From NCBI GenBank assembly GCA_965261025.1, contig OZ253438.1:630001-662000 (forward strand): 32,000 nucleotides of DNA, given 5' to 3'. Below are positions 1,175 to 18,000 of this stretch, piece after piece. How positions within the stretch are numbered: the stretch's first letter is position 1; every line of letters begins with the position of its first letter. Source of the DNA: Chlamydiales bacterium. Lineage in GTDB: Bacteria > Chlamydiota > Chlamydiia > Chlamydiales > SM23-39. Made by a program: the position numbers and the translations under genes. The notes below the pieces were generated by a model. That model was not told where the DNA came from. It searched no databases and saw only the letters and a program-made list of their open reading frames with translations.

Positions 1175-1573
1175 TTAAGCAGCAATAATCGCCCCCATAG
1201 CCACAAGATTCACAAACCAAAAAAAAGAGTCAATGAGAAAAAGCCTAACTCTCGCTTTTAACCATATAACAGGATACAAAAGAACAGGCGCTACCAAACC
1301 TATCCAAATCCCTACTCCTACATAAACTCCGTCTAAAGCAGAAGTTGCCCCCAAAAAGGCTAAGAAAACTGCTAAAAAAAAAGCTGTAACAAAAGAAAGA
1401 AGCACCGTAAGGACCCAAGAAAGCTTCCAAAGGGATCCCTTTCTAGAGTCAATACGATGCTCTTTTTTCCAAAGTTCTCCAAAAAGTAGAGAGGAATACC
1501 AGATCCCTCCTATTATACAAGAGGTTAAGGCAGCTACTAAAACAGTTAGTATATCAATATCTATGATTTCCAT
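1175..1573 (-). CDS. Small polytopic membrane protein, DUF1761-like
   Basis: 132-aa ORF with about 4 hydrophobic helices. The N-terminal 'LTVLVAALTSCIIGGIWYSSLLFGELW' resembles the conserved start I remember for DUF1761 proteins (G.lWY..l.Fg..W). An AGGA lies 7 nt upstream. The start is 2 nt from the stop of the upstream lipoprotein gene, suggesting translational coupling. Confidence 0.6.
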   Translation of the reverse strand: MEIIDIDILTVLVAALTSCIIGGIWYSSLLFGELWKKEHRIDSRKGSLWKLSWVLTVLLSFVTAFFLAVFLAFLGATSALDGVYVGVGIWIGLVAPVLLYPVIWLKARVRLFLIDSFFWFVNLVAMGAIIAA

Positions 1574-1575
1574 TT

Positions 1576-2673
1576 TTATCCTAAAGGTAGAGTTAACACA
1601 GGAGGAGGAGCTTTTCTATCTTCCGATTGAAGATTATATAGCTGTAAAAGCAAAAGAAAAGTTTGTTTGGACTGCATATCTGTATCTTTTATGTAGAACC
1701 AGTACCCTTTGTATTTTGTTGCTACATAGGCTCCTTTGGGACGGTAAAAAGAACAGTATATGTGCATCAATTGAGAAGTAATCTGCTTCCAATCAAAAAA
1801 GCTTCCCTTTTCTACAGTTAAAGCCACTATCTCCTTTTCCATATGTTCTTCAGGAATTCGAATTCCTGTAGAGAGATAATACATACAAGATAGAAGAGAC
1901 CTTGGCATAATTCCCACTCTTGCCTTGGTGTTATACCCAAGCTCTACAGTAAGCAATCTATGCCCATTTTCCGTTTTTACTCCAGGGAGAAGTTCTGCTA
2001 ACCTCTCAGATTCCTTTCCTTGTTCTGGAAAGATAACCTGCAAGATTTGTTTTTCTTCTTTTCCTTCTTTACATTCTTCGATACGCACTCCTAAGTGAAG
2101 CTCCGATCTTTTCTGAAAATAACGAAGAAGCTCTGTAACCTCAAAAAAAGACTCATATCTGGGAACATATTCGGGAATAGGACCCGAAGCCTCCGGGGCA
2201 TTAAGATGCTCATCAAAGCTTTGGACTACCAAACGAAAGACTAGATCTATATTCCAGCCTGAAAGAACTAGCTGCTGCATAACTCTTAAATCAATAGGGT
2301 GCAAAAGCTGTCTTGCAAAAGCCTGTCCTTGCAAAGGGACATACTGAACAGTAGGCTGATTTTGCCAAGAAACATCTCCTCCTACAGAAACAGGATTTGG
2401 CATAGTAAACCCAGGAATCTTAAAAGCAGCATTTCCCGAAGTTTTGAAAGTAAACTGCGTAGTGATATTTCCCACATTTAAGAAAAAAGGCGTATCGTAG
2501 TAGCGAAGCCTGACCAAATTGAGAAGCATCTGCTCACTACCTGTCTCTTGTAGCACCGTGTTATAAGCAGTTCTTCCTCCACTTCCTTCCACAGCATATT
2601 TGCTAGAAATTTGACAGCTACAAAGAAAAAAAAGAGGGAGAAGAAAGAAGGAAAAAACAAAAAATCTCTTCAT
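1576..2673 (-). CDS. Putative lipoprotein of unknown function
   Basis: 365-aa ORF. The N-terminus MKRFFVFSFFLLPLFFLCSCQ has a basic n-region, a hydrophobic core and a lipobox-like L-C-S-C. The rest is soluble-looking with no motif I can name. It is first in a tightly packed three-gene minus-strand string. Confidence 0.7.
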   Translation of the reverse strand: MKRFFVFSFFLLPLFFLCSCQISSKYAVEGSGGRTAYNTVLQETGSEQMLLNLVRLRYYDTPFFLNVGNITTQFTFKTSGNAAFKIPGFTMPNPVSVGGDVSWQNQPTVQYVPLQGQAFARQLLHPIDLRVMQQLVLSGWNIDLVFRLVVQSFDEHLNAPEASGPIPEYVPRYESFFEVTELLRYFQKRSELHLGVRIEECKEGKEEKQILQVIFPEQGKESERLAELLPGVKTENGHRLLTVELGYNTKARVGIMPRSLLSCMYYLSTGIRIPEEHMEKEIVALTVEKGSFFDWKQITSQLMHIYCSFYRPKGAYVATKYKGYWFYIKDTDMQSKQTFLLLLQLYNLQSEDRKAPPPVLTLPLG

Positions 2674-2746
2674 GAGGACCCACCAAAAAACAAAGAGCCA
2701 AGATACCGAAATCTTTAAAAAAGGGCCAGGGATCTTTTAAATATTC

Positions 2747-2775
2747 TTGTAGAGAAAAAAAAAGATTCTTATAAG
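2747..2775 (+). promoter_or_regulatory. Candidate sigma70/66-type promoter for the histidine kinase operon
   Basis: TTGTAG (2747-2752), a 17-nt spacer, then TATAAG (2770-2775), about 25 nt upstream of the ATG at 2801. It lies in the 127-bp divergent intergenic region. Motif match only. Confidence 0.25.
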
Positions 2776-2800
2776 CAAGGAAAGTAACAAAAGCTTTCTT

Positions 2801-5281
2801 ATGCTCTCGTTCTGGAAAAGAAGTGTACCCCTTTTTTTTGCGGGAATCCCCCTCCTTGTATCCCTTATGGTACTCGTGGGATGGTATATAAAAAACATAG
2901 CTCTGATCCGAGTTCTCCCTCATTTTACGGGTATGCAATACAACACAGCGCTTTGTATATTTCTCTTAAGTGCTGCCATTATCCTCTTTTTATTTGAAAA
3001 ATCTTGGATACCAAGGGCTCTTTGTCTTTTTGTGGCTGTTCTGACTTTTTTTACTGCAATTCAAGATATTGCACAGACTGATTTTGGCATCGACAACTTC
3101 TTTTTCACTTATAATTTAGAAACTACCATGAATCATCCAGGGAGAATGGCCTTAAATACAGCCTTCTGCCTCTTTTTTCTCGGCTTGATTATAATAACCC
3201 TTTCTTTCAATACTGAAATTTTTGATCTCATTGCGTTAATCCTCTCTGCTATCGTCCTTAGCTTTGCTATAGTTAGCTTCTTAAGCTACTTAACAGGCTT
3301 AGAATCTTTAGCAGGATGGAAAAACTTTTCTAGGATGGCTGTCCATACTGCCTTTTGTGTTATCTTTCTGAGTTTTTCTATTGGTTTACACATCGTTATA
3401 AAATCGCTAACTTCTTCTACTCAACTAATTACTCTTCCTCTAACAGCTGCTATGCTTGCCCTGACCAGTTCAGTAGCTGTATGGCAGGCCTTCAAAGCAC
3501 AGGAATTTTTTTTCGCAGAAAAAGAAGCTAGAGATGTCCTGGAATATTTAAAGGCAGATATGGAAGACTCTTTACGAGAGGAAATTGGGATCTTAAGAAG
3601 ATTAGCAGAGAGATGGGAAATCTTGGAAGGATATCCAGAAGCTCTGTGGCAAAAAGATACACAGAATTACCTTAATGATTTAAAAGGTTTAGCTTTTATC
3701 TCTGTAGTTGATAAAAACTTTCAGATCCTAAAACAAGCAGGAAAGGCAGATAATGTCTTATCCCAGCTTTACGAAGAAGAAAAAACCCTTCAAGCTCTAC
3801 AGAAAAAAGAGACCACAATCAAGTTAGATAAAACCACAAAAAAGCTTCTTGTTTTTATTCCTCTATTCTTTCAAAGCTCTTTCAAAGGCGCCCTTATTTC
3901 TGAATTAGATCCTAAAGTTTTCTTTGAAAAATCCCTCCGCTCTTTGGGAAAAAGCCATTATCTGATCTTATTACTTTCTAAAAATACCATCCTCTTCTCT
4001 TCTGGTGAAGATCTTCCCGTTGTGGTAGGCTCTCCCCTTTCTGTAAACTTTAGCTATATTCCCTGGGTTTTAGAAATCTACATTACCAAAGATAGTTTAA
4101 AAGGGGGATTTTGGCAGCTTACCTTCTTCCTTATTTTAGGAGGCCTTTTGATTACCACCCTATCTTTTGCCGCAACTTACCTAGCCGTTTCCATAAGGAT
4201 GAAGAAAAAGGCCATAGAAAAACAGAATCAAGAACTTGCTTCAGCTAAACAAAAAGCAGAAGAAGCCACTGTTGCTAAAAGTACTTTTTTAGCTACCATG
4301 AGCCATGAAATTAGAACCCCTTTAAACGCAATCATAGGAACCATCCAGTTAGTAACAGAAACCAATCTAGATGAAATACAAAAGAAATACGTAAAACGTA
4401 TTAACCTTTCCAGCCGCTCTCTTTTAAATCTCTTAAATGACATCCTAGATTTTTCCAAGATGGAGTCTGGCACTTTAAAAATAGAAAAAGCGCCCTGCAA
4501 CCTCCTAGATATAGCAAGGCAGTCAAGTCAAGATCTACTCTTCAAAGCAAAGGAAAAAGGGCTCGATCTCCTACTGGATTTTCCTTCCTTTTCTATGCCT
4601 GATATAGAAACAGACCCCTACAGACTCCAGCAAATCATAACGAATTTTATTAATAATTCCTTAAAATTTACCGAAAAAGGCTCCATTACTACCCGGATTT
4701 CGTATAAGGAGAAAGAGAATAAACAGCTTCTTACAAAAATAGAGGTCATTGACTCTGGAATAGGAATTTCCCCAGAAAATCTCCAAAAACTCTTTCAAAA
4801 GTTTTCTCAAGTAGAAGTCTCCCATGCAAGAAAATCAGGCGGAGTAGGCCTTGGTCTTTCTATCTGTAAACACTTAGTAGAAGCCATGCAAGGCTCTGTC
4901 GGGGTAGAAAGTGAACCGGGAAAAGGCTCTTGTTTTTGGGCAGAAATCCCTTTTTATCTAGCTTCTAACCAGCCCCCTTCCTCTAACTACTCCCTAGAAG
5001 GGAAGAAAATAGAGCTGCAAAGCTCTTGTGCAAAAGAGCAAGATATCTTATCAAGGTACTTAAGAGACTGGAAAGTTTTTTTAACGACAGAAGCAGATAA
5101 AAACCTTTCTATTTTTTCTTCTGATTTAAAGGAGAAAATAGAGGAGGCAAAAAAAGGGAAAAAAACTATTGCCCTCATTAAAAATGAAGAAGGACAGGAA
5201 GAAGGGATCGCAGCCTGTTTTATAAGACCTATTGGCGTTAAGGATTTCTTTTCCTCCCTACAGAAAATTTTAAACCCATAA
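2801..5281 (+). CDS. Membrane sensor histidine kinase: polytopic N-terminal sensor, HisKA and HATPase_c, then a degenerate receiver-like tail
   Basis: 826 aa. H-box '[18 protein letters not shown]' (His502, nt 4304-4306). N-box '[14 protein letters not shown]'. G1 '[11 protein letters not shown]'. G2 '[34 protein letters not shown]'. The first ~235 aa are multi-pass membrane. A further TM segment ([26 protein letters not shown]) sits just before a coiled-coil and the HisKA domain. Confidence 0.92.
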
Positions 5282-5289
5282 AGGTTTCT

Positions 5290-5688
5290 ATGGATTACAA
5301 GACTTGTTTTGCAGGAAAAAAAATTCTTCTAGCAGAAGATGACACCACTAACCAAGAAATGATGAAAGATATCCTAGGAGGAATGCAGTGCCAAATAGAA
5401 ATAGCAAAGGATGGAAATGAGGCGGTAACTAAGTTTTCTCAAGGAAGTTTTGACCTTATTTTAATGGATATCAGAATGCCTAATAAAGATGGTATTCAGG
5501 CTACTAGAGAGATTAGAGCGTTAGAAAAAGGCAATAAAAAAATCCCCATACTCGCTCTTACTGCTAGTACATTAAATTCAGAAAGAGAAAGTATCATATC
5601 GGCAGGGGTTGATGACTTTTTACAAAAACCTATTAACTTAGAAGAACTTAGAAAAAAAATGGCGCAGCATCTTTTGGGAAGCACATGA
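5290..5688 (+). CDS. Stand-alone CheY-like response-regulator receiver domain protein
   Basis: 132 aa. Acidic pocket 'LLAEDD' (D17/D18). Phospho-acceptor 'LILMDIRMP' (D60, nt 5467-5469). 'LALTAS' (T91). 'FLQKP' (K113). No output domain. Starts 8 nt after the kinase stop, with an AAGG upstream. Confidence 0.92.
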   Translation: MDYKTCFAGKKILLAEDDTTNQEMMKDILGGMQCQIEIAKDGNEAVTKFSQGSFDLILMDIRMPNKDGIQATREIRALEKGNKKIPILALTASTLNSERESIISAGVDDFLQKPINLEELRKKMAQHLLGST

Positions 5689-7103
5689 AATCATTTCGTC
5701 CTTTTTTATTCTTTCTCATCTTTTTTTTCTTAATAGGACTTAGCGTATCCTGGTTTGTCTTTCAAAAAGCTCTAAAGCAAGAAAATCAGCTATCTCAGAA
5801 AAAATTTGAGGAGAAAGTTCAGGGGTTTTTGTACGCTATTCAAGAGCGTTACTCTAGAAATCAGCTCGTATTAGAAGGTATAAGAGGGTTTTTTGCTGCT
5901 TCAAATTATGTCTCTTCAGAAGAATGGAATTTATACATAGAAGGCCTGAACCTCAAGGAAAAATTTCCTGGAATCCGGTGGGTCTCCGTCATTCAGTATA
6001 TCCCTTCCTTTGAGGAGGATTCTTTTCTTTCTTCTTTTCGCCAAAAAGAAAACTCTTCTTATCAAATATGGCCGAAGAGTACAGAAGGACATCTTTTCCC
6101 GATAACTTACATCTACCCTCATTACTTTAACCCTTGGCTCGGCTTTAATCTTGCCAGCAAGCCAGAACAAAAAACAAAATTACAAAATTCTATACGAAGT
6201 AAGGAAATTGAGGTCTCTAAGGCTTTTTCTCTCCATTCTTTGGAAAAATCTCCCTCAAGTTTTTTTTTCTTCCTTCCTATATTTAAAGGAAAAGAATCCA
6301 TTTTTGGATGGGCCGGTGCCTTCATTGATTTTTCCATTCTTTTAGAAGGGGTTGTCGAAGGAACTTCTTTAAAAGAGATTAACCTACAAGTTTTTTCAGG
6401 AAAAGAAGAAATAGCAAAAAACTTAATCTTCCAAAAGATAAATAGAAAAATCTCTCCTTCCTGGAAAACTACCAAAGACCTCAAATTAGGAGATCTTTAC
6501 TGGACGCTATCTTTTTCTAGCTTCAAAACTTCAGAAACAAAAAGCCTCTACCCTTTTCTTATTTTATCTTTTACTTTGATTTTTACGGTAGTTTTAGTCT
6601 TTTTGTTTTACTTCATAGTAAAGAAAACCGCTTCGTATCAAAATCTGGACAACAATGAAAAAGATCTTTTTTTAAAAACTCATTTACAAGATCACCTAAA
6701 ACAAGCCTTATTTGCTACAGATACTCAAGGCCTTTTTATCTTATTTAATTCCACGGCAGAAGGGCTTTTAGGATATCGAGCAGAAGATCTTATAGGAAAA
6801 GAAAAATTAACTCTTCTATGTGATCTAGAGGAGTTGAAGAAAAAAGCCGAAGAGCTTTCTTCTATTTTGAAAAGAAAAATAGAACCGGGATTTGCTGTAT
6901 TCCAGGCTTTTTTAGAAAAGGAAATCGCACCTTACCAAGAATTTTCTCTTTTAAAGAAAAATCGGTCAAAAATTTCCCTATCACTTCACCTTTCTGTTAT
7001 CTTAGACCCAGCTAAAAATCTGATAGGATACCTCTTCCTAGTTTTAGAGAAAAATCCCCCTTCTTCTACGCCGCCACCCTCCTCTGGTCAAAATCAAAAA
7101 TAA
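5685..7103 (+). CDS. CHASE domain, TM segment, PAS-like domain protein with no transmitter or output domain
   Basis: 472 aa. N-terminal TM (FLFFLIFFFLIGLSVSWFVF). The extracytoplasmic region follows the CHASE pattern: '...SSEEWNLYIEGLNLKEKFPGIRWVSVIQYIP...FPITYIYPHYFNPWLGFNLASKPEQKTKLQNSIRSKEIEVSKAF...FFFFLPIF'. A second TM follows (LYPFLILSFTLIFTVVLVFLFYFIV). Then a PAS-like 'LFATDTQGLFILFNSTAEGLLGYRAEDLIGKE'. Its ATG overlaps the receiver gene stop (ATGA at 5685-5688). Confidence 0.8.
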   Translation: MKSFRPFLFFLIFFFLIGLSVSWFVFQKALKQENQLSQKKFEEKVQGFLYAIQERYSRNQLVLEGIRGFFAASNYVSSEEWNLYIEGLNLKEKFPGIRWVSVIQYIPSFEEDSFLSSFRQKENSSYQIWPKSTEGHLFPITYIYPHYFNPWLGFNLASKPEQKTKLQNSIRSKEIEVSKAFSLHSLEKSPSSFFFFLPIFKGKESIFGWAGAFIDFSILLEGVVEGTSLKEINLQVFSGKEEIAKNLIFQKINRKISPSWKTTKDLKLGDLYWTLSFSSFKTSETKSLYPFLILSFTLIFTVVLVFLFYFIVKKTASYQNLDNNEKDLFLKTHLQDHLKQALFATDTQGLFILFNSTAEGLLGYRAEDLIGKEKLTLLCDLEELKKKAEELSSILKRKIEPGFAVFQAFLEKEIAPYQEFSLLKKNRSKISLSLHLSVILDPAKNLIGYLFLVLEKNPPSSTPPPSSGQNQK

Positions 7104-7181
7104 GCAAAAAGCTACAAAGACGGCATGCCCTTTTACACAGATTCTTTAACGCTCTAAGAGCAGAAAACTCTCGTTTCTAAC

Positions 7182-7505
7182 CTATCCTTTCCGAGAAAAA
7201 TTCTCTTTTAGTTTTTGTAAAAATCCCTCTAGTTCTTTAGGAAGAGAGGAAAGATCTTTTCCTTGGGAAAGATTTTCCTTTGCTTCTTTGAGTTTTTGAT
7301 CCCATTCTCTACACAGATTCGTAACAGACATATAACCAAAGGATCCAGCTGTGCCTGCCGTTTTGTGAACCAAAGCTTGTAGTGAATGAAGCGTTTCTTC
7401 TTTCATTTCCTTTTGTAAAGAAGAAATAAGCTCCTCGACTTGCTTTATCTTCTCTGGAATATTTTTTTCATATTCTTTGGAAAAATCTGCTAGATTATCT
7501 GTCAT
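7182..7505 (-). CDS. Histidine phosphotransfer (HPt) domain protein
   Basis: 107 aa. 'ALVHKTAGTAGSFGY' aligns residue for residue with the canonical HPt motif (for example ArcB 'AHKIKGAAGSVGL'). The phospho-His candidate is H47 (nt 7365-7367). The gene starts 18 nt downstream of the valS stop on the same strand. Confidence 0.8.
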   Translation of the reverse strand: MTDNLADFSKEYEKNIPEKIKQVEELISSLQKEMKEETLHSLQALVHKTAGTAGSFGYMSVTNLCREWDQKLKEAKENLSQGKDLSSLPKELEGFLQKLKENFSRKG

Positions 7506-7523
7506 AAAAACTCCTTTTATCCG

Positions 7524-10331
7524 TCATAATAAAGAAAGCTTATCTCTTATTTTTTTCACAGCTTCTTTTGCCTCTTTTACCTGTTTTTGAAATTCTTCTA
7601 CTACTTTTTTAGGAGCTTTTTCCAAAAAAGCTTGATTATTTAGTTTGCTTTCGGATATTTCTATCCTTTTTTGTAATTTTTCCTCTTCTTTCAAAAGGCG
7701 TTTTTTTTCTCTCTGCTTCAACTCTTCTGGAAGAGGAAGAAAGACTTTTACTCCTTCCACAATACAAAAGGACCCGAAAGCCTCCGGCTCTTTCTTGGTA
7801 AAAAAAATCTGCTCTACAGGAAGAAGAGCCTCAAAAATCCCCTGATTTTCCCTTAAAAAGGCCTCTTCTTTTTTCCCTAAGAAAAAAAGTTCTGTCTTCT
7901 CTGCAAGAGAAAGCCCCATTTCCCCTCTTAACTTTCGAATTTCATACAAAATTCTTTCTATCTTAGAAAACTCTTGTAAGGCTTTTTCCTCTATCTTCTC
8001 CTTTTCTTGCTTAGGGTAAGAAGAGCTAGCGCAAGCTATAGACGCAAGACTTTCTAAAAAGTCTTTTGCATACGAATCTTTTGGATCTTTAGAAAAAACA
8101 GGATAGGCCTTTTTTATATAAGAAAAGAGCTCTTCTGTAATGAAAGGAAGTAAAGGATGCATTACACGAATCATCCTCTGAAGACAAAAAAGTAAAATTT
8201 TCTGTTTGTTTTTTCTCTGTTGTCTCTCTCCCTTTTTTTGAAAAAGATAAGGCTTTACCATTTCCAAGTACCAAGAACAGAAACGATCCCAATAAAAAGT
8301 ATAAGCAAGATGAGCTGCTTTATCAAAGGCATAGTCTTCTAAGGCCCTTTCTACTTTTCCTATATTCTGTTCCATTTCCGATAAAAGCCACCTATCTTCT
8401 AGAGTGTATATAGAAGTTTCAAGCCCTTCTGAAAGGTCTGTTTCTATTAAAGGATCTCTTCCTTCGACACAATGGAGAAAAATAAAACGAGCCCCATTCC
8501 AGATTTTGTTGATAAAGTTCTTAAATTCTTCAAACCTTCTAGGATCTAAATCAATTTGCCTTGCATAAGTTGTGGAAAAAGCAAGAGTCATCCTCAAAGC
8601 ATCCGCACCATATTCTTCAATAACTTCTATAGGATCAATTACATTTCCCTTGGATTTAGACATTTTTTCCCATCTTGCCTGAACTTGATTGGGAAGAGGT
8701 TTTCCCTGATCATAGGCCCTTTTTTCCAAGCTAGATACGTAGGAAACTCCTTCTGGGGTTTGAACAAAATAAGATTTCCCATAGATTAATCCGTGAATGA
8801 AAGTCTTTTTAAAAGGCACCTTATCTTCTAAAAAGTCTCCCATAAGAATCATCCTGGCTACCCAAAAAAATAAGATATCATGCCCTGTTACCAAAACAGC
8901 GGTAGGATAAAATTTTTCTAAAAGAGGGGTTTTTTCAGGCCAGCCTAAAACCGTCAAGGGCCAAAGAGCAGAAGAAAACCACGTATCTAATACATCTTCC
9001 TCTTTTTGCCAAAGATCTGGCTCTTTTTGTACCTCAGAAGGTATAGCCTCTTCAGAACAGAGAATTTTTTCTTCCTTTTTATGATACCACACAGGAATCG
9101 TATGTCCCCACCAAAGCTGCCTAGAAACACACCAATCCCGTAAATTCTCGATCCAATGAAAATAGGTGTTTTCCCAATGACTTGGGAGAAGTTCTATCTT
9201 TTTCTCTTTTACTAAAGAAAGAAGCCTTTCTTTAAAGGGTTTCATCCGAATAAACCACTGCTTGGAAAGATACGGTTGAATTACTGCTTTCGAACGGTAG
9301 GAAACCCCGAGTCGTATCTTGTAAGGCTCTGCTTTTTCCAAAAGATCTCTCTTACTAAGCTCTTCTATGATCTTTTTTCTCGCTTCTTCTATAGTAAGTC
9401 CTTCAAAAAGGAGTCCTCCTACTTCGTTAATTTTGGCCTCTTTGGTAAGTAAGTTGATTCTAGAAAGGTTATGCCTTAGCCCCATCTCATAGTCATGAAA
9501 ATCGTGGGCTGGGGTAATTTTCACTACCCCTGTTCCAAATGCCGGATCTACAAAGCTATCCTGCAAGATAGGAATTTCCCGGTTTGCGAAGGGAACTACG
9601 GCCTTTTTCTTTATAAAACGTAGGTACCTTTTATCTTCTGGATGAATGGCAAGCGCTGTATCCGCTAAAATTGTCTCTGGGCGCGTAGTTGCTATAACAA
9701 GGGGATTTTTCTCTCCTCTTACTGGGTATCTTATATACCAAAGATATCCTTCTTTTTCTTCCCATTCTACCTCATCATCGGATAAAGCAGTCTGGCTTAC
9801 AGGATCCCAATTTACTAGATAGTCTCCTCTGTATAATAAACCTTTATCGAAAAGGATTTTAAAAGCCTTCTTTACCGCTTGAGAACTCTTTTCATCCATC
9901 GTAAAGCGGTACTTACTCCAGTCAAGACTACAACCTAGTCTCTTCAGCTGATCTTGGATCCTTTTTTCGTGTTCTTCCTTAAACTTCCAAATCTGCTCTA
10001 CAAAAAAGAATCGGGAAAAATCCCTTCTCCTTTTCCCCGTTTCTTTGTACAGTTTATTTTCTACCACAGTCTGAGTGGCAATTCCTGCATGATCTGTTCC
10101 GGGAAGCCATAGAGCAGAAAATCCTTCCATTCTTTTCTTTCGAATTAAAATGTCCTGCAAAGTATCTACCAAGGCATGCCCCATATGAAGAACCCCTGTT
10201 ACGTTAGGAGGAGGGAGAACTAGGGAAAAAGGTTTTTTAGAAGAATGAGGGTCTACTTGAAATAGGTTCTTTTCTTTCCAAAATTCAAGCCATTTTTTTT
10301 CTATTTCTAAAGGGGAATAATTCTTTTCCAT
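7524..10331 (-). CDS. valS: Valyl-tRNA synthetase
   Basis: 935 aa. Class I HIGH region 'PPPNVTGVLHMGHAL'. KMSKS loop 'KMSKSKGN'. Typical ValRS blocks ('TRPETILADTA', 'DWCVSRQLWWGH'). C-terminal Lys/Glu-rich coiled coil. Confidence 0.97.
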   Translation of the reverse strand: MEKNYSPLEIEKKWLEFWKEKNLFQVDPHSSKKPFSLVLPPPNVTGVLHMGHALVDTLQDILIRKKRMEGFSALWLPGTDHAGIATQTVVENKLYKETGKRRRDFSRFFFVEQIWKFKEEHEKRIQDQLKRLGCSLDWSKYRFTMDEKSSQAVKKAFKILFDKGLLYRGDYLVNWDPVSQTALSDDEVEWEEKEGYLWYIRYPVRGEKNPLVIATTRPETILADTALAIHPEDKRYLRFIKKKAVVPFANREIPILQDSFVDPAFGTGVVKITPAHDFHDYEMGLRHNLSRINLLTKEAKINEVGGLLFEGLTIEEARKKIIEELSKRDLLEKAEPYKIRLGVSYRSKAVIQPYLSKQWFIRMKPFKERLLSLVKEKKIELLPSHWENTYFHWIENLRDWCVSRQLWWGHTIPVWYHKKEEKILCSEEAIPSEVQKEPDLWQKEEDVLDTWFSSALWPLTVLGWPEKTPLLEKFYPTAVLVTGHDILFFWVARMILMGDFLEDKVPFKKTFIHGLIYGKSYFVQTPEGVSYVSSLEKRAYDQGKPLPNQVQARWEKMSKSKGNVIDPIEVIEEYGADALRMTLAFSTTYARQIDLDPRRFEEFKNFINKIWNGARFIFLHCVEGRDPLIETDLSEGLETSIYTLEDRWLLSEMEQNIGKVERALEDYAFDKAAHLAYTFYWDRFCSWYLEMVKPYLFQKKGERQQRKNKQKILLFCLQRMIRVMHPLLPFITEELFSYIKKAYPVFSKDPKDSYAKDFLESLASIACASSSYPKQEKEKIEEKALQEFSKIERILYEIRKLRGEMGLSLAEKTELFFLGKKEEAFLRENQGIFEALLPVEQIFFTKKEPEAFGSFCIVEGVKVFLPLPEELKQREKKRLLKEEEKLQKRIEISESKLNNQAFLEKAPKKVVEEFQKQVKEAKEAVKKIRDKLSLL

Positions 10332-10381
10332 GTCATTTCTTCCTATAAAGAAGGGAGGGTAGCAAAAAAAAGAGTAAGCTT

Positions 10382-10915
10382 CTAGCTTGAAAGAAACTTT
10401 TTATAAAAAAAAGCGGAATGAATACTTGTATCAAAAAGCTCTTTACCTTGCATTTTAGCAAAAATAAGCTCCTCTTCTAAAAAAATTACTTCCATGAACT
10501 CAAAAGACTCTCTTTTAGGAGAAGCGCTTTTTTCTATTTCTGAAGAATAAAACAGGTGAATCCTATGTTGGGAAATCGAAGGCAAGGGAAGATAAAACCC
10601 CAAATATTGTAAAGAAGAGACTTTATAACCAGTCTCCTCTAAAAATTCCCTTTGTGCATTTTGTTTTAAAGACTCTCCTTCCTCTACTCTCCCTCCTGGG
10701 AGGCCATAGATATACTGCCTTAAAGGGTGTCTATATTCTTTTAAAAGAAGATATTTTCCTTTGTTACGGGCTAAAACTACCACACCATCTGCTTTAATAT
10801 CTAAAACCAGATAGCTCATCTTCTTTTCTTCTCTTTGCAAATGATCTAACTGTAAGCTAAAAAAACCCTCATAAAGGATCTCTTTTTTTTCTATTAGGGG
10901 ACTCTCTTCAGACAT
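10382..10915 (-). CDS. Nudix hydrolase (ADP-ribose pyrophosphatase-like)
   Basis: 177 aa. Nudix box 'GLPGGRVEEGESLKQNAQREFLEETGY' fits G-x5-E-x7-R-E-U-x-E-E-x-G-U. Its start overlaps the 3' end of pknD by 22 nt. Confidence 0.85.
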   Translation of the reverse strand: MSEESPLIEKKEILYEGFFSLQLDHLQREEKKMSYLVLDIKADGVVVLARNKGKYLLLKEYRHPLRQYIYGLPGGRVEEGESLKQNAQREFLEETGYKVSSLQYLGFYLPLPSISQHRIHLFYSSEIEKSASPKRESFEFMEVIFLEEELIFAKMQGKELFDTSIHSAFFYKKFLSS

Positions 10916-13608
10916 TCCAACCTCTTACGGAAAAAAGTTTCTTTTTCTTTTTCTTTTGTACAGTAAAAAAATAAGATGAGCCTTTCAAAAAGGATCTTTT
11001 TTTCGTAATAAAAAGCACTTTTTATCCAGCCCTTTTCCTCCTCTATCTTTCCACAAAGATAAGCACTTGCTAAAGCGTGAAGAGGGGGATATCTTTTCTC
11101 CTGTAAAGTAGTAAAATGGAGCGTAGCTTTTTCCTCCGATTCTTCCAAAGATAAAAAACATCCATAGGCCGTGTGCAGCGGAGTAAAAGCAGAACTAAGC
11201 ATTTTTTCTGAATATCTTTTTACTAAGTTTTTTGCTGCTTTGCGCTTACCTTGTGCTAAAAGAGCCCACAGAAGCATCTCATCTAAATAGGAAAGATCTT
11301 CTTTAGATACCTCAAAACTAGGGAGCAAAGAAAAGAATTTTTGTACCTCTTCAAACTGGCTTTTCAGTAGCTTTTCCTTCAAAAGGAAATACAAAATACG
11401 AATCTGTTTTCTATCTAATTTGGGCCCTTGTTTTTCCAACAAAGAAATAACTCCAGGTAAATTTCCCAATAAAAGCTCTTTTAACCCCCAAGGAAGATTA
11501 TTTTGCACAGTTTTTTCTTGCATTAACTCTTCTAGCTCTTCTACAAAATCAAGCTCAAAAAGCCCCATTAATGCGTTCTGTATCGTTTTTTCCTCTATTT
11601 CTTTCATCTTAGAAAATACTTGAGATATCTCCACCAGAATAGCTCTATTTCTCACCCAAAAAGCCAATATGATAGCAATTCTTGCCTGGAGACTCTCTTT
11701 TGGAGCTTCTTCCATGAAAAAAGGAAATTCCCAGTGTTTTTTAAGCCCTTCAAGAAGATTTTTTGTATCTCTTTGATGAAATATCTTAGGAAAGTACCGG
11801 ACCGCTAAAAGGATTAGATGATAAGCAGCTTGTCTTTTGGTATGAGAGCTTTCATGCATACGAAATAAAATGTATTCCTCAAATAGAGAAAGTAAAGGAT
11901 GTTTGGGATACTTTCTCAAAGCAAATTCTAAACATTTTACCTCTTCCTCATAATCCTCTAAGGCTTCATAAACCATGGCCTTTCCCAAAAGCTGTAAAGG
12001 AGCTCCAGCTGCTGTAAGATGCTCAAATTCCTCTAAAGCTTGATGAAAAAGCTGTTTTTTTTCTTTTCTTACCTGTTCTTCTTTTGCCTTTTGTAAAAGA
12101 GTAAGCCCAGCTCGAAAAAAAGCCTCCCTCCCCTCTTCTCTTCCTGGGAAAGACCTGCCTATCTTTCGATACTCTAAAAGGGCATGCTCATAATCTTTAT
12201 AAGCATAAAAAGCATCCGGTACAGCAAGGCAGTTTATCATAGCATTATAAGAGCTGGTGTATACTCGAAGCGGTTTTATTTCAAATTCTGCATCCTTGTG
12301 AAGCATCCCAATATGAGTCCCAGAAAGAGGAAAGTGCGAGCTATAAGAAATCAGTGGAACTTCATCTAGAAAAACCTTCACAAAAGATACGGTTTTCTCT
12401 AAGCAAATTTGATGCCACTTTCCTTTTTGTAAAAAAGGAACTTCTGTTTCTGCTACTAAAACATTGCAGCGAAAGAGCTGACAACCTTGGGGCCCCAGCC
12501 AAAGACAGTAGCCTTGTTCTAAGCTTTTTCTTTGGGAAAGCTCTGGTATGCTCAATAAAAAACCGGCTCCTCCCCCTTTTTCCTTGATTTTCACTTTGGT
12601 TTCTATGCGAATATTCCCAGGAAACATTTGCTGCGAAACCATTAAGCTTACCCACTCCATAAATTCTACATGCCTTGTAATAGCAATGTGTTTAGCTAAA
12701 AAAACATTTTCCTGAAATTCCCAATCTTCCTTCTTTTCTATCTTCAATTCTGCTGCAAAAACCCAGCTAGATTGTCCCTCCACTACCTTCTTGATCTCTT
12801 CAATTAAATCAGAGACAAAAGCAAATCTTTTCTCCTCCTCATTAGCAAGACACTTTTGCAAAATGGCTTCTATTTCCTGGGGAATTTCTCTATAAGGAGC
12901 TAACTCTATAGGAGAAATCCATTTCTCTTTTCCCGCTACTTTCCGAAAAGCCGCTAAATTTCCTCTATGAAAAGGGAGTTCTAAGGTTAAAATTTGATAC
13001 AAAATGATACCTAAAGCATAAATCTCTGTTCTGATGGAACTGGGATTTCCCATGACTCTTTCAGGAGCCATGTAGGAGATAGTGCCTGCTACTTTTCCTC
13101 TTCGGGAAACAGACTCTTCTAAAAACTCGGCAATCCCCCAGTCTAAGATCATAACTTCCCCATATTTTCCGATGATGATATTTTCTGGCTTTAGATCTCT
13201 GTGGATAATTTTCTTAGAATGAGCGTAGGAGATAGCTTCACAAATCTGTAGAAAAATACGAAGTAAAGAAGCTACAGAACCTCCTACAGGAGGGAGAATC
13301 TTTCCCCTTTTTTGTCCTTCTTTCGTCTCTTTCAAAACTTGACGAAGTGTTTCCCCCTCCACATAAGGCATCGTGTAATAAAAAAGTTCTTCATTAATGG
13401 TAAAGATAGGCACAATCGAAGGATGGGTAAGCTGGGAGGCTATCTGCGCTTCCCTTAGAAAACGAACTTGAATAGATTTCTTCTCTTTTAGCTCAGGTTT
13501 GATCCTTTTTAGAGCAACTTCTCTTTTACAAACAGGATCATAAGCAAGAAAAACCTCCCCCATTCCTCCTTTACCCAAGCTCTGCTTTATCGTATAGCGA
13601 TCTATCAT
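10894..13608 (-). CDS. pknD: Ser/Thr protein kinase, chlamydial PknD type, with a long non-kinase C-terminal region
   Basis: 904 aa. Gly loop 'LGKGGMGEVF'. 'VALKRI' (catalytic Lys). 'HRDLKPENI'. 'ILDWGIA' in place of DFG. 'ISYMAPE'. As I recall, chlamydial PknD also carries DWG and sits next to valS. The C-terminal ~450 aa are helical-repeat (TPR-like). The middle ~170 aa look beta-rich. Confidence 0.9.
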   Translation of the reverse strand: MIDRYTIKQSLGKGGMGEVFLAYDPVCKREVALKRIKPELKEKKSIQVRFLREAQIASQLTHPSIVPIFTINEELFYYTMPYVEGETLRQVLKETKEGQKRGKILPPVGGSVASLLRIFLQICEAISYAHSKKIIHRDLKPENIIIGKYGEVMILDWGIAEFLEESVSRRGKVAGTISYMAPERVMGNPSSIRTEIYALGIILYQILTLELPFHRGNLAAFRKVAGKEKWISPIELAPYREIPQEIEAILQKCLANEEEKRFAFVSDLIEEIKKVVEGQSSWVFAAELKIEKKEDWEFQENVFLAKHIAITRHVEFMEWVSLMVSQQMFPGNIRIETKVKIKEKGGGAGFLLSIPELSQRKSLEQGYCLWLGPQGCQLFRCNVLVAETEVPFLQKGKWHQICLEKTVSFVKVFLDEVPLISYSSHFPLSGTHIGMLHKDAEFEIKPLRVYTSSYNAMINCLAVPDAFYAYKDYEHALLEYRKIGRSFPGREEGREAFFRAGLTLLQKAKEEQVRKEKKQLFHQALEEFEHLTAAGAPLQLLGKAMVYEALEDYEEEVKCLEFALRKYPKHPLLSLFEEYILFRMHESSHTKRQAAYHLILLAVRYFPKIFHQRDTKNLLEGLKKHWEFPFFMEEAPKESLQARIAIILAFWVRNRAILVEISQVFSKMKEIEEKTIQNALMGLFELDFVEELEELMQEKTVQNNLPWGLKELLLGNLPGVISLLEKQGPKLDRKQIRILYFLLKEKLLKSQFEEVQKFFSLLPSFEVSKEDLSYLDEMLLWALLAQGKRKAAKNLVKRYSEKMLSSAFTPLHTAYGCFLSLEESEEKATLHFTTLQEKRYPPLHALASAYLCGKIEEEKGWIKSAFYYEKKILFERLILFFYCTKEKEKETFFRKRLECLKRVP

Positions 13609-14032: not shown

Positions 14033-15052
14033 ATGGAAGATCTTTTTACCTCTTATGAAGGAAAGGTTATTTTGACGGGGGACAGGCCCACAGGCCCTCT
14101 TCATTTGGGGCACTTTGTTGGCTCATTAAAAGCCCGAGTTTCTCTACAAGAGAGAAACAACCAATTTGTCATGATTGCAGACATGCAGGGATTGACTGAC
14201 CATGCTGAAAATCCACAGGTCCTGCGTACCTATGTGAGGGAGGTTGTTTTGGACTACCTCTCTGTAGGGATTGATCCCGAAAAAACTACGCTTTTCCTTC
14301 AGTCAAAAATTGCGGCTCTTTCAGAGCTTACCCTTTTTTATCTAAATCTGGTTACCTGGAACCGCCTCAAACATAACCCCACCGTAAAAGCAGAAATCTT
14401 ACAAAAAGGATTTAAAGAAAGCGTCCCCGCAGGTTTTATGATCTACCCTATTTCTCAGGCAGCAGATATCACAGCTTTCAAAGCAGAGCTTGTCCCCGTG
14501 GGGGAAGACCAAATTCCTATGATAGAGCAAACAATAGAGTTAGTTAGAAAATTCTCTCAAACCTATTCGAAAGGGGTTTTGGTAGAGCCGAAAGCACTTC
14601 TTTCTTCTTCAAAAAGACTAGCTGGAACGGATGGGAAACCTAAAATGAGTAAAACGACAGGCAATGCAATCTTCTTATCTGATGAAATAGATCTAGTAGC
14701 TAAAAAGGTAAAGAAAATGTATACAGATCCCACTCACCTAAAGGTAGAAGATCCAGGAAAAGTGGAAGGAAATCCTGTATTTGATTATCTAGATGCTTTT
14801 GATTCAAACAAAAAAGAAGTGTCTAGACTAAAAGAGCATTATCAAAGAGGGGGGCTTGCTGATTCTAAGGTAAAGGGTTATCTTCTAGAGATTTTAGAAG
14901 CTTTCTTATCTCCTATAAGAAAGAAAAGAAAAGAGTACGAAAAAGATCCTACCTATATAGCAAAGATTATCCGAGAAGGCTCTAACAAAGCCTCCTCAGT
15001 AGCAGAAAAAACCCTTTCTGAAGTAAAAGAAGCTATAGGTATCTGGAAATAA
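14033..15052 (+). CDS. trpS: Tryptophanyl-tRNA synthetase
   Basis: 339 aa. '[15 protein letters not shown]' (HIGH). 'KMSKTTGN' (KMSKS). TrpRS-typical '[12 protein letters not shown]'. Confidence 0.95.
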
Positions 15053-18000
15053 GAGGATTTTCAATTTGTTCTTGCATTCTCTCCAGATGAATGAGTAAGG
15101 CGTTGTTGCTATCTTCTACCCCTTTTAGCTTTCCTACTTGCTTCATTGCTTTAATTAGGTCTAATAAAGAAGCCGCCTCGGTTTCTATGATTTCCTTTAC
15201 TTTTTCTTCGAAAATCTTTAGCTCCCATTTGTGCAATATAGGAGGAAAATGAAAAATTCTCCAAAGAGCTTTTTTCCTCTGAAAATCTTGCTGAGAGACC
15301 ACTTTTCTAAAGCAGTCATAATCGGTAAAGCAAAAAGAATACCGGTCCTCTTCTACGTGTAAGATGGCATAGGCAAATGGATTTTCGGAAGAACTTGCCT
15401 CCCGTATTTTCTTTTGCCAAAATAAAGCATCAGGTCCGCTTAGCCCTACAGTAGAATATTGCTCTGGCTTTGACTTATCAGGAACTACCAATAGTATATG
15501 AGTAGCCTGTTTTCCCCAATTTCTTGACAGAGTAGAAAAACGCTGCCAGGAAGGAAAAAACCCTTTTGAAAAAGGCAATAAATTGTGGGTTGCCTCCATT
15601 TTCTCTTCGAAGAAATAGGAAAAAATCCTCCAGGCTTGCTCGGAAGAGCCTTGCAGGATCTCTGTTAAAGGCTTTACAAAAGCAAGCTCTTTTGTAAGGT
15701 CTAAATCTTTTTTCCAAGGGATATAAGGATCTTTCTTAAATCTGGGAACAACAGGTGAAAAATTTTGCTTTTCTTGCTGTTTTTCCTGCTGTTTTTCTTG
15801 CTGTTTTTCTTGTGTCTTCGAACTAGTCTTCTGCTTTACCCTATTTGTCCCTCTTGCCCTTATGTCTTCAGTAAGCACTTTTTCGGGCAGTAGTTTTTGC
15901 TTAAAACCGATAAAAAGCTCTTGCATTCTTTGCTTTTCCTCTATAGAAAAACAGGTAGCTTTTTCTATTCTTTCCCCCCAAGAAGCCTTCCATCCTAAGA
16001 TTATCTTTTCCGGATCTATCTCCTCTCTTTTTCCTCCAAAAAACACTCCTCCCTCAAAGCATTTTTTGGAAACAAACAAATCGGAAAATTCTTTAAAAAT
16101 CCTATCTCTTTTGCGAGAAGAGCTTTCCAAAAGCTTTAACATCACCTCTTTTCGTAAAATAGCAAAAAACTTTTGAGAAGCGGCTTGTAGAGAAAGTCTT
16201 TGTAATTTCTCTTTTTCTTGCTCGGTAAGATATCGAACTAATTCAGGTAAAGAAATTCTTTCCTCTTCTAAGGGGATTTGTGGCATAACATGTACTGCTA
16301 AGCTTTGCTCTTTCTCTTTAATTCCTCTAAGTCTAAGAATTGCCTGAAAAGAATCTGAGAGAGTATTAAAGCCTACTGTAACATGGGATCGAGCTCTTTG
16401 TTTTTGAGAGATATCTATTCCGTAAAAATGTCCTCCATCCAAATAACAAACCCTTTCTTCTTCTGAAAGACCACAGCTTTCCAAGGCAGCTATTCCCGTT
16501 TCTGTCAATACCTTCAGTTCGTTATCTTCTCCAAAAAAGACAACTCCTTTGATCTTTTTTCTGTTAGACAAGGCAAGCTTATTCCAAATTTCAGAAGCTA
16601 CTTTTTGATTTTGCATCCCATAAAATAGGTTCCCTAAATCGACGATCATCATGCCTTGTTCATCTCGAACAAATTGGTCTAAAAATTGCTCTCTAAGCCT
16701 TCCTTCTGGCTCTTTCTTTAATTTTACAAGCTTTCCCCTTTCAAGGGCTTTTTCTGCTAACAGTAACGAATTTGCTGTGGTTCCTTCCATTTTTTGGGAG
16801 GAGAAATCTTCAGGGTATAAATCTTCGTTATAAATAGTCCCTGAAAGGCCCTTTACTACGGGAGCCATAAGAGCAAAATCAGAAGAGTTACAGTCTATGG
16901 AAGCAGGATAAAAAGGAATGCTAGGGCCTACTACTCGTTCAACAAAGAAAAGAATTACTTCTGGATTCTTTTGCATTTCTTCTAAAGAAAAATCCTCCAG
17001 CTTAGTTTGCTTACTGTTTAAAGCTCTTTGTAAAAATTGAATTACCTCTGTTTCTTCTTCCTCACAAACTAGCTCTTTTCTTTCCTTTTCTATTCCTTCT
17101 TGCAGGATTTGAATTACCTGCTTTACTTGTCTTTTCTCTAGTCCTTTCTGCAAATAATAGCTGAAGGAACGGACTAATGCTTCATAAGGCAACTCAGAGC
17201 TACTTCCCTCTTCTGGGTTATTATTTCCTGCATAAGGAATCATATATTCTTTTTTTCTTTCTTGTTTTGATCTGCCGTAGCTTACATCTATTCCCCCTTC
17301 TCTTGCTAAAGAAGGAAGACACTGCAACAAGGCCCCTCTTGCAGAGGCCACAGCAGAAAAATAAGAGGTTCTTTTTAAAAATTCAGGAGATTCCTTTTTA
17401 AAAGAGGAAAAGTACAGGGCTAATTCTATTTTCTGCTCTCGGGAAAAAATAGGAAAAGAAGAAGCCACCTTTTCTGGTATTAGCGAAAAACAACTTTCCA
17501 ATGCTTTCCTATCACGAAGTAATTCTTCTACGGGGATCCCTTTTTCTCTTGCTATCTCTACTAAGGCTTCAAACACTTTTTTTACTCCATAAATATCTAC
17601 TTTTGTCAAATTTTCCTCTTCTCCTATAGGAAATTTTTCCACCTGCTCTGGAGAAAAAGCCTCATGACATTCATCCACTACCATAGAAGCTGAATTGTAT
17701 AAGATAGATAAAATCTCTTTGGAAAGAAGCCATTTTTGCTCTATATTTTCCCCTTTTTCAGAGGATAAATAAGCAAGTTCCACTAGGGAAAGCCATAGAC
17801 ACTGCAAGTCTTCCTTGGTAGTAAAAATTCCCTGTCCCAGCTCTTGCGCTTTTTTTATTTTTAATAAAGCATGCCTTAAATAGGCTCTGCTGTTTTCTCT
17901 TTCAAAACCTATATAAGAACATTCCTTTCCAAAAGCCTCAAAAAGAGTGCTTCCTATTTTTTCTTTACTAGAATCGATCAAAGCTTTGGTAAAAACTAAC

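Follow-up and report, generated by a model that had tools for sequence, protein, structure and literature searches.

The multistep phosphorelay is a known class of mechanism, and the described systems closest to the locus reported here differ in how its modules are shared out among polypeptides. In the tripartite kinases BarA/GacS, TorS, ArcB and EvgS, a histidine kinase (HK), a receiver (REC) and a histidine phosphotransfer (HPt) module follow one another in a single chain. In relays with a free HPt (Vibrio LuxQ/LuxN–LuxU–LuxO, Pseudomonas hybrid HKs–HptB–HsbR and yeast Sln1–Ypd1–Ssk1), a small monomeric HPt takes phosphate from the receiver associated with the kinase and delivers it to a separate, terminal one. 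The Bacillus relay KinA–Spo0F–Spo0B–Spo0A is fully split into His-Asp-His-Asp steps, with a free single-domain receiver as the second of them. Here we describe a four-gene cassette in 32,000 nucleotides of a Chlamydiales bacterium (assembly GCA_965261025.1, contig OZ253438.1, positions 630,001 to 662,000 of the forward strand; hereafter the window) that encodes a membrane HK, a stand-alone REC, a protein with CHASE, transmembrane (TM) and PAS segments, here called CHASE-PAS, and a stand-alone HPt. With moderate confidence, we read the four genes as a conserved chlamydial multistep phosphorelay, in effect a hybrid kinase of the BarA/TorS type broken into separate genes. New with respect to the known class would be the split hybrid-type form, the vestigial receiver that remains on the kinase and the output-less CHASE-PAS partner.

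The tripartite kinases contain the same three phosphotransfer modules in the same order, whereas in the cassette each module has its own gene, the HPt lies on the opposite strand, the receiver on the HK is degenerate and a transmitter-less CHASE-PAS gene has been added. The cassette scores far under the equivalog cut-offs (285 versus 676 bits for TorS) and thus has no orthologue among these kinases. In the LuxU, HptB and Ypd1 systems the intermediate receiver is fused to the kinase, whereas in the cassette it is a separate protein of 132 amino acids (aa), with no terminal regulator encoded nearby; the window HPt matches LuxU and YPD1 weakly. The Bacillus relay shares the complete split and the free receiver but differs in that Spo0B is a dimeric DHp-like protein and not a monomeric four-helix HPt, its kinases are not of the hybrid type and its genes are dispersed. 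Plant AHK2/3/4 with their AHP/ARR partners also use CHASE input, a degenerate receiver-like domain between kinase and true receiver, and a free HPt downstream, and the structural matches of the vestigial receiver described below include the plant ARR1 and ETR1 receivers. In the cassette, however, the CHASE domain proper is on a kinase-less protein and the HK ectodomain is only distantly CHASE-like, with no sign of orthology or of cytokinin binding. Finally, kinases of the CikA type likewise place a receiver-fold domain lacking phospho-acceptor chemistry after the HK, and the top structural matches include the pseudo-receiver of CikA (5jyu), but CikA, a soluble kinase of clock output, feeds straight into RpaA, with no HPt relay involved.

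An earlier note, made from the DNA letters of the window, had placed four open reading frames (ORFs) in this order and assigned their domains; the ORF list bears out all four positions, and the assignments agree with Pfam at its curated cut-offs (HisKA 26.9 bits, HATPase_c 26.4, Response_reg 30.2, CHASE 25, PAS 22.6 and Hpt 24.6). The proposed membrane HK with its acceptor at His502 matches HisKA at 78.9 bits and HATPase_c at 100.8 bits, has H502 in its H-box and retains the N, G1, F and G2 boxes expected of a HisKA-type kinase (NxxxN..KF, DSGIG, FQKF and GVGLGL). In NCBIfam it is matched best by the transmitter cores of TorS, BarA, LuxQ, LetS, RcsC and ArcB, and by its sequence the transmitter is of the hybrid/unorthodox (BarA/TorS/ArcB/RcsC-like) type. 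The second protein (Response_reg, 94.5 bits) is the intact receiver that had been described, with D17/D18, D60, T91 and K113 all present and E16 in addition; these residues of a CheY-like receiver are invariant across eight related receivers. In NCBIfam, this REC best matches receiver domains of hybrid kinases (BarA, PRK15347, HrmK and TorS).

The convergently oriented 107-aa protein is likewise the HPt that had been claimed, with Hpt at 40.6 bits and H47 in place. Its PDB profile matches are the CheA P1 domain (E 5e-6), the BarA HPt, AHP, LuxU and YPD1, all with the His aligned, and it has the features of an HPt with a motif, HKTAG, in which the Lys stands at +1 instead of +3. H47, A50, G51 and G57 are invariant in five HPt orthologues, which share the signature IPEKI...HKxAGNAGSFGY...LCxEWDxKL. 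The earlier note had named profile HMM (hidden Markov model) searches as a check on REC and HPt, and the Pfam, NCBIfam and PDB matches confirm both assignments. In the remaining protein, CHASE (94.2 bits) is flanked by TM segments and followed by PAS (31.1 bits), and the chain ends about 20 residues past the PAS domain with no output domain, in agreement with the earlier description of a protein lacking a transmitter; it has the CHASE domain and TM segments of a CHASE receptor and not the cytoplasmic output. The tight packing also checks out in the sequence: a gap of 8 nt separates HK from REC, and the end of REC overlaps the start of CHASE-PAS in an ATGA.

The cassette recurs across divergent chlamydial lineages. 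Starting from the HK and CHASE-PAS proteins, we reached ten further lineages with flanking DNA (locus numbers with the prefix L), and HK and REC are adjacent in all ten. The CHASE-PAS gene directly follows REC in nine other lineages (L001/L002, L003, L004, L042, L043, L044, L045 and L046) and is absent only in L005-7; across these nine, the three-gene set is kept at 26–43% identity. Right after the cassette, the window, L003, L004, L005-7 and L042 each have a free, convergent HPt gene; L043 has it on the strand of the cassette, with a TPR gene inserted before it. These HPt orthologues were recovered through synteny and custom HMMs; a word-indexed search with the window HPt returned only the query itself. 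Identity to the window proteins is 33–42% for HK, 31–38% for CHASE-PAS and 29–42% for HPt, and REC is the most conserved component at 56–64%. The flanks vary, with valS in the window and lepB/CT021, rpsD, cox genes or the dcw cluster elsewhere, and since the flanking genes differ every time, the linkage belongs to the cassette and not to the neighbourhood. Co-conservation in related genomes, which the earlier note had named as a check, is thus found, and the recurrence of the cassette in chlamydial lineages indicates a multistep phosphorelay that would be in working order. The cassette is so far restricted to uncultured chlamydiae. The only relatives named at source are a Parachlamydiales metagenome-assembled genome (MAG) and a 'Chlamydiales bacterium' MAG, and one related locus carries CT021/lepB and another a chlamydia-typical MurC-Ddl fusion in the dcw cluster.

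Individual loci depart from this pattern. In L044, a DDE transposase (11649–12481) sits exactly at the site that the convergent HPt gene occupies in other lineages, and the insertion may have displaced or removed the HPt gene there. Two small ORFs of L045 were considered as HPt candidates and rejected: a 115-aa ORF after CHASE-PAS is a small basic protein, and a 69-aa ORF at the contig edge has no match to the L043 HPt. In L001 (417–802), the cassette receiver gene is broken into two overlapping ORFs of 77 and 70 aa, either through a frameshift or assembly error or as a pseudogene; the receiver gene is intact in L002, a near-identical Parachlamydiales MAG.

The HK also retains the remains of a receiver. 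All orthologues conserve a stretch of about 100 residues that follows the ATPase domain, and the profile of this tail aligned end to end with the cassette REC family in hhalign (83.8% probability, E 7.9e-6), as against at most 2.7% probability for six unrelated control profiles. An AlphaFold2 (AF2) model of the tail (pLDDT 87.5, pTM 0.80) has alternating beta and alpha elements, and the top 50 matches of this model in a Foldseek search of the PDB are almost all receivers (TM-scores of 0.63–0.79), including RR468, ARR1, DivK, Spo0F, CheY, ETR1 and the CikA pseudo-receiver. A PDB sequence search with the tail profile gave nothing significant. The window copy has QSS for the acidic DD pocket, no Thr or Ser at the end of beta-4 and Arg for the Lys, and it is the most degenerate copy, its pocket devoid of any acidic residue. 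The tail is therefore a pseudo-receiver, having the receiver fold but having lost the acidic pocket, the Thr/Ser and the Lys. This amends the earlier description of the relay as fully split: the functional REC and HPt are indeed separate ORFs, but the HK keeps a degenerate built-in receiver that had been missed. With its fused receiver degenerate and its functional REC and HPt encoded separately, the cassette works like the hybrid/unorthodox kinases and is not a member of them.

Table 1. Positions of the cassette genes and of features of the HK in the window
Feature	Positions	Strand	Basis and remarks
HK, membrane sensor histidine kinase, 826 aa	2801–5281	+	ORF; HisKA aa 492–557, HATPase_c aa 605–718
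HK N-terminal multi-pass membrane region, aa 1–228	2801–3484	+	Hydropathy scan; repeated (G/S)RM-x-x-(N/H)TA motifs; kept in orthologues
HK extracytoplasmic domain, aa 229–440	3485–4120	+	TM-bounded, ~210 residues; distantly CHASE-like
Predicted phospho-acceptor His502 codon	4304–4306	+	H-box; invariant in all orthologues
HK C-terminal pseudo-receiver, aa 727–826	4979–5278	+	hhalign, AF2, Foldseek
REC, stand-alone receiver, 132 aa	5290–5688	+	Response_reg; predicted relay intermediate; D60 codon 5467–5469
CHASE-TM-PAS protein, 472 aa	5685–7103	+	TM-CHASE-TM-PAS; CHASE aa 76–249, PAS aa 333–451
HPt, stand-alone, 107 aa	7182–7505	-	Hpt; H47 codon 7365–7367; convergent with HK operon

Outside its catalytic core, the HK gives little by family search: residues 1–470 have no Pfam match even at E<=1. 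In a profile comparison with the CHASE domain of the partner family, the HK ectodomain (Table 1) matched over 77 columns (hhalign, 90.8% probability, E 1.2e-6), and six unrelated control profiles reached at most 1.5% probability. The match is specific but partial, and we describe the ectodomain as distantly CHASE-like. The AF2 model of the ectodomain was poor (pLDDT 47); it was not used for a fold search and does not corroborate the likeness to CHASE.

The CHASE-PAS protein belongs to a family of its own. An exhaustive profile search over 1.84 billion representatives returned about 20 clusters, of 443–476 aa, that match it end to end, and long fused sensor proteins rank below these clusters. 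So many full-length clusters argue that the output-less CHASE-PAS architecture is a conserved family and not a truncation. We infer that the protein acts on the HK in trans, as an accessory co-sensor and not as a step of the relay, because L005-7 do without its gene. The PAS subtype of the family (window 6681–7037; motifs NPAAEKLLGY and RWTYIRKDQSRV) is about 40–48% identical to the PAS domains of many long metagenome sensor kinases (L011–L041). The fused loci checked for this subtype (L008–L010) are of high G+C content (GC) and non-chlamydial, and a metagenome scan with a five-member CHASE-PAS subset gave mostly PAS-only matches in high-GC, non-chlamydial kinases. That scan supplied the fused comparators used below (L008–L011, L029 and L037).

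Comparison with fused kinases suggests how the cassette arose. In the NCBIfam alignments, the window HK core, REC and HPt fall on consecutive parts of TorS and BarA. The kinase core finds its best matches beyond the family in fused hybrid kinases, some of which have CHASE, HK, REC and HPt in one chain (P0008 and P0084). The fused metagenome relatives usually have two tandem receivers after the kinase, HK-REC1-REC2(-HPt), of which the second is closer to the cassette REC. In L009 (non-chlamydial, 53% GC), a CHASE-PAS(x3)-HK-REC protein is followed by separate REC and HPt genes. The vestigial receiver of the HK and the REC1-REC2(-HPt) order of its closest fused relatives are most simply explained if a hybrid/unorthodox kinase with tandem receivers was the ancestor of the cassette; REC1 would then have degenerated in place, and REC2 and HPt would have become separate genes.

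The absence of an output domain from the window, as first claimed, holds, with none found by Pfam among the other large ORFs, and an HMM derived from the cassette REC detected no second receiver among window ORFs of at least 50 aa. The earlier note had also put no name to the terminal acceptor; that stands for the window, whereas particular receiver proteins suggest themselves at related loci. In L043, a single strand carries the block HK-REC-CHASE/PAS-TPR-HPt-REC2-HEAT-GT2, and in L045 the orthologous REC2-HEAT-GT2 genes lie immediately upstream of HK; the two REC2 proteins are 56% identical, with their phospho-acceptor residues intact. In L002, L003 and L004, the cassette adjoins GT2, TPR and/or GT4 genes together with the gene for a divergent single-domain receiver. 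A free HPt gene is absent from L002; instead, a cassette-type HPt domain is fused to receivers in a protein of at least 518 aa encoded 5 kb upstream (cassette HMM E 2.9e-15; 33% identity to the window HPt over 108 aa, E 2e-9). The L004 homologue of this protein (753 aa, E 4e-27) has lost the His, and L004 keeps a free HPt. The fusion in L002 and the loss of the His in L004 together make a Rosetta-stone-type link between the HPt and the multi-receiver protein. A degenerate GGDEF domain considered in the 753-aa protein was dropped, since Pfam at E<=1 gives it no support.

Candidate terminal receivers at the related loci are thus REC2 (L043/L045), REC131/119 (L002/L003) and the multi-REC proteins (L002/L004). 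The GT2 protein is closest to processive synthases of the PgaC/IcaA type and the TPR protein resembles the PgaA/BcsC type, both far under the equivalog cut-offs. In relatives with larger genomes, the relay probably ends on a single- or multi-domain receiver that controls a synthase-dependent polysaccharide system, and the adjacency of REC2 and multi-REC genes to the HEAT, PgaC-like GT2 and TPR genes points to post-translational control of a polysaccharide synthase. Among window ORFs there is no homologue of the REC2, HEAT, GT2, TPR, GT4, MASE3-like or multi-REC genes. Receiver proteins conserved across the phylum are AtoC/CtcC and PhoB/ChxR, the latter keeping its Asp outside Chlamydiaceae (PMC4652624, PMC4989314), and the acceptor in the window genome may be a receiver like those of the relatives encoded elsewhere, or the phylum-wide PhoB/ChxR-type protein or AtoC/CtcC.

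Together, the genes for the GT2, TPR and HEAT-repeat proteins and sometimes a GT4 resemble a synthase-dependent exopolysaccharide module; next to the relay cassette, they lie at 3217–6533 in L002, 5623–8585 in L004, 9171–14083 in L043 and 684–3195 in L045. Beside the HPt/multi-receiver proteins, L002 (1563–3122, minus strand) and L004 (3955–5463, minus strand) also encode homologous MASE3-like multi-pass membrane proteins (E 6e-25). HisKA matches the L002 copy weakly, Asn takes the place of the H-box His (LLSNELNIPL in L002, MTNILKVPI in L004) and an ATPase domain is detectable in neither; both are apparent pseudo-kinases.

In the phosphorelay that we propose, the HK would sense a signal through its multi-pass membrane region and CHASE-like ectodomain and autophosphorylate on H502. 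The phosphoryl group would pass to D60 of the free REC, which would stand in for the HK's own degenerate receiver, the pseudo-receiver probably serving docking or regulation only. It would go from there to H47 of the HPt and on to a terminal receiver encoded outside the window. The CHASE-PAS protein, translationally coupled to REC, would most likely be a transmitter-less co-sensor that modulates the HK and takes no phosphotransfer step, probably through contact between CHASE-type ectodomains or through the membrane helices. For REC, the place of relay intermediate is predicted from its hybrid-kinase receiver matches and its synteny with HPt.

Several observations weigh against this proposal. 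The window HPt is on the opposite strand and apparently part of a pknD-NUDIX-valS transcription unit, HPt was undetected within 10 kb in L044, and contig edges limit the view in L045 and L046. The 32 kb of the window contain no gene for a terminal response regulator, and the CHASE likeness of the HK ectodomain comes from the single 77-column profile match. Within its family, the window CHASE-PAS is the outlier: it differs at two PAS positions that hardly vary elsewhere (W420F and D426N), and its C-terminal tail is rich in Pro and Ser and of low complexity. Moreover, no motif reliably parts relay-intermediate from terminal receivers, so that REC could be the endpoint: intermediate receiver (Rec_inter) domains are not monophyletic and have no universal sequence signature, the FATGUY motif marking only a subset of them (PMC9981736). 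The window REC carries ALTAS in its place.

The last point bears on a plain two-component pair, in which REC would itself be the output through protein contact, like CheY, DivK or CpdR, and HPt would be a sink, a buffer for reverse transfer or a part of another pathway. Single-domain receivers are often terminal, and the strong conservation of REC and its translational coupling to CHASE-PAS would suit a binding partner; an HPt gene on the other strand behind valS, and the indistinguishability of Rec_inter domains by sequence, fit as well. Yet HPt accompanies the cassette in six or more different genomic settings and is fused to, or directly precedes, further receivers, which implies onward transfer, and the best matches of REC are hybrid-kinase receivers that feed HPt domains. 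We consider such a pair unlikely. Alternatively, as in DivK–DivL, phosphorylated REC could be bound by the CHASE-PAS protein, its target or a feedback element, which in turn would toggle the HK between kinase and phosphatase modes; CHASE-PAS would then not be an independent ligand sensor. This is the main alternative to its role as a co-sensor. Caulobacter offers a precedent, its pseudo-kinases and PAS proteins being known to act as readers of single-domain receivers (discussed in PMC9981736), and the ATGA overlap, the invariable adjacency of the REC and CHASE-PAS genes and a cytoplasmic PAS domain with no output would all accord with such a role. However, the protein has a full extracytoplasmic CHASE domain, which is a ligand-binding module in all characterised cases, and L005-7 retain HK, REC and HPt in its absence, so the core circuit does not need it; a DivL-like role thus seems to us very unlikely.

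The window copy could also be a functionless remnant in a reduced 1.4-Mb genome, persisting transiently after loss of the output module (REC2/HEAT/GT2/TPR). The lack of any REC2, HEAT, GT2, TPR, GT4, MASE3-like or multi-REC homologue in the window, the most degenerate of the pseudo-receivers and the deviant CHASE-PAS, with its two PAS substitutions and low-complexity tail, are what decay would be expected to leave. But all four ORFs are full length and free of frameshifts, with every catalytic residue intact; L005-7 and L042 retain the cassette though they too have no GT2 module nearby; and the visible span is 32 kb, so that an output module may lie elsewhere in the genome. Decay is, in our judgement, highly improbable. 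The phosphorelay reading can be carried further, to a two-subunit receptor (CHASE-like HK with CHASE-PAS co-receptor) that feeds a split His-Asp-His-Asp relay and, through it, a single-domain receiver controlling a PgaC-like synthase by way of a HEAT partner. The relay would then replace cyclic di-GMP control in a phylum that has no such signalling, and the window genome would have kept sensor and relay and rewired them to another acceptor. This extension is speculative, and we think it quite unlikely to hold as a whole.

The surroundings of the cassette in the window are those of a chlamydial chromosome. The other large ORFs encode, by Pfam, ValRS, NUDIX, a PknD-like kinase, a class-I tRNA synthetase of the Trp/Tyr type, a giant DUF3638 ORF, CT021, signal peptidase and IleRS, and include the chlamydial gene pairs pknD-valS and ileS-lepB-CT021. 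We assign the window a chlamydial origin from this synteny, from the source-named relatives, all of them Chlamydiales or Parachlamydiales MAGs, from the MurC-Ddl fusion at a related locus and from the rarity of HPt in chlamydiae, where only 1.85% of the 108 genomes in a 2015 census had HPt domains (PMC4558063). Origin of the cassette in a genomic island is unsupported, GC being even across the window and no integrase evident among the large ORFs (tRNA genes were outside the scan).

On the minus strand (7182–13608), genes for a pknD-like Ser/Thr kinase (904 aa), a NUDIX protein (177 aa), valS and HPt are co-oriented and closely packed. The NUDIX ORF overlaps pknD by 22 nt, the HPt start lies 18 nt past the valS stop, and the stops of the convergent HPt and CHASE-PAS genes are 78 nt apart. 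In the window genome, HPt may thus be transcribed together with a eukaryote-like kinase and a tRNA synthetase, an arrangement that is not kept in the related loci. Promoter and terminator scans of positions 2400–7700 gave results at or below shuffle expectation and do not inform on operon structure. Directly upstream of HK, in divergent orientation (1175–2673, minus strand), are a 365-aa ORF with a lipoprotein-like N terminus and no family match and a gene for a DUF1761 membrane protein, neither of which is found near the cassette in other loci. The giant ORF (15033–25163, minus strand; 3376 aa) has DUF3638 as its sole Pfam match (aa 2342–2520, E 5e-10), and a similar DUF3638 ORF (more than 2863 aa; 18523–21350, plus strand) lies about 7 kb from the cassette at the Chlamydiales MAG locus L044.

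Histidine-kinase signalling is considered almost absent from chlamydiae, where it has been described as 'sparsely (if at all) encoded' (PMC4989314), and our literature search found no paper describing a chlamydial phosphorelay. The presence of such a relay in these bacteria, and its conservation, are noteworthy against that background. The cassette would be a case of natural fission of a hybrid kinase into its modules, and its output-less CHASE-PAS protein suggests sensing in trans. From the link to a PgaC-like synthase in the relatives, environmental chlamydiae may have a regulated polysaccharide that has gone unrecognised. For host or extracellular-phase sensing by obligate intracellular chlamydiae, a relay of four small genes in a 1.4-Mb genome would provide a testable handle.

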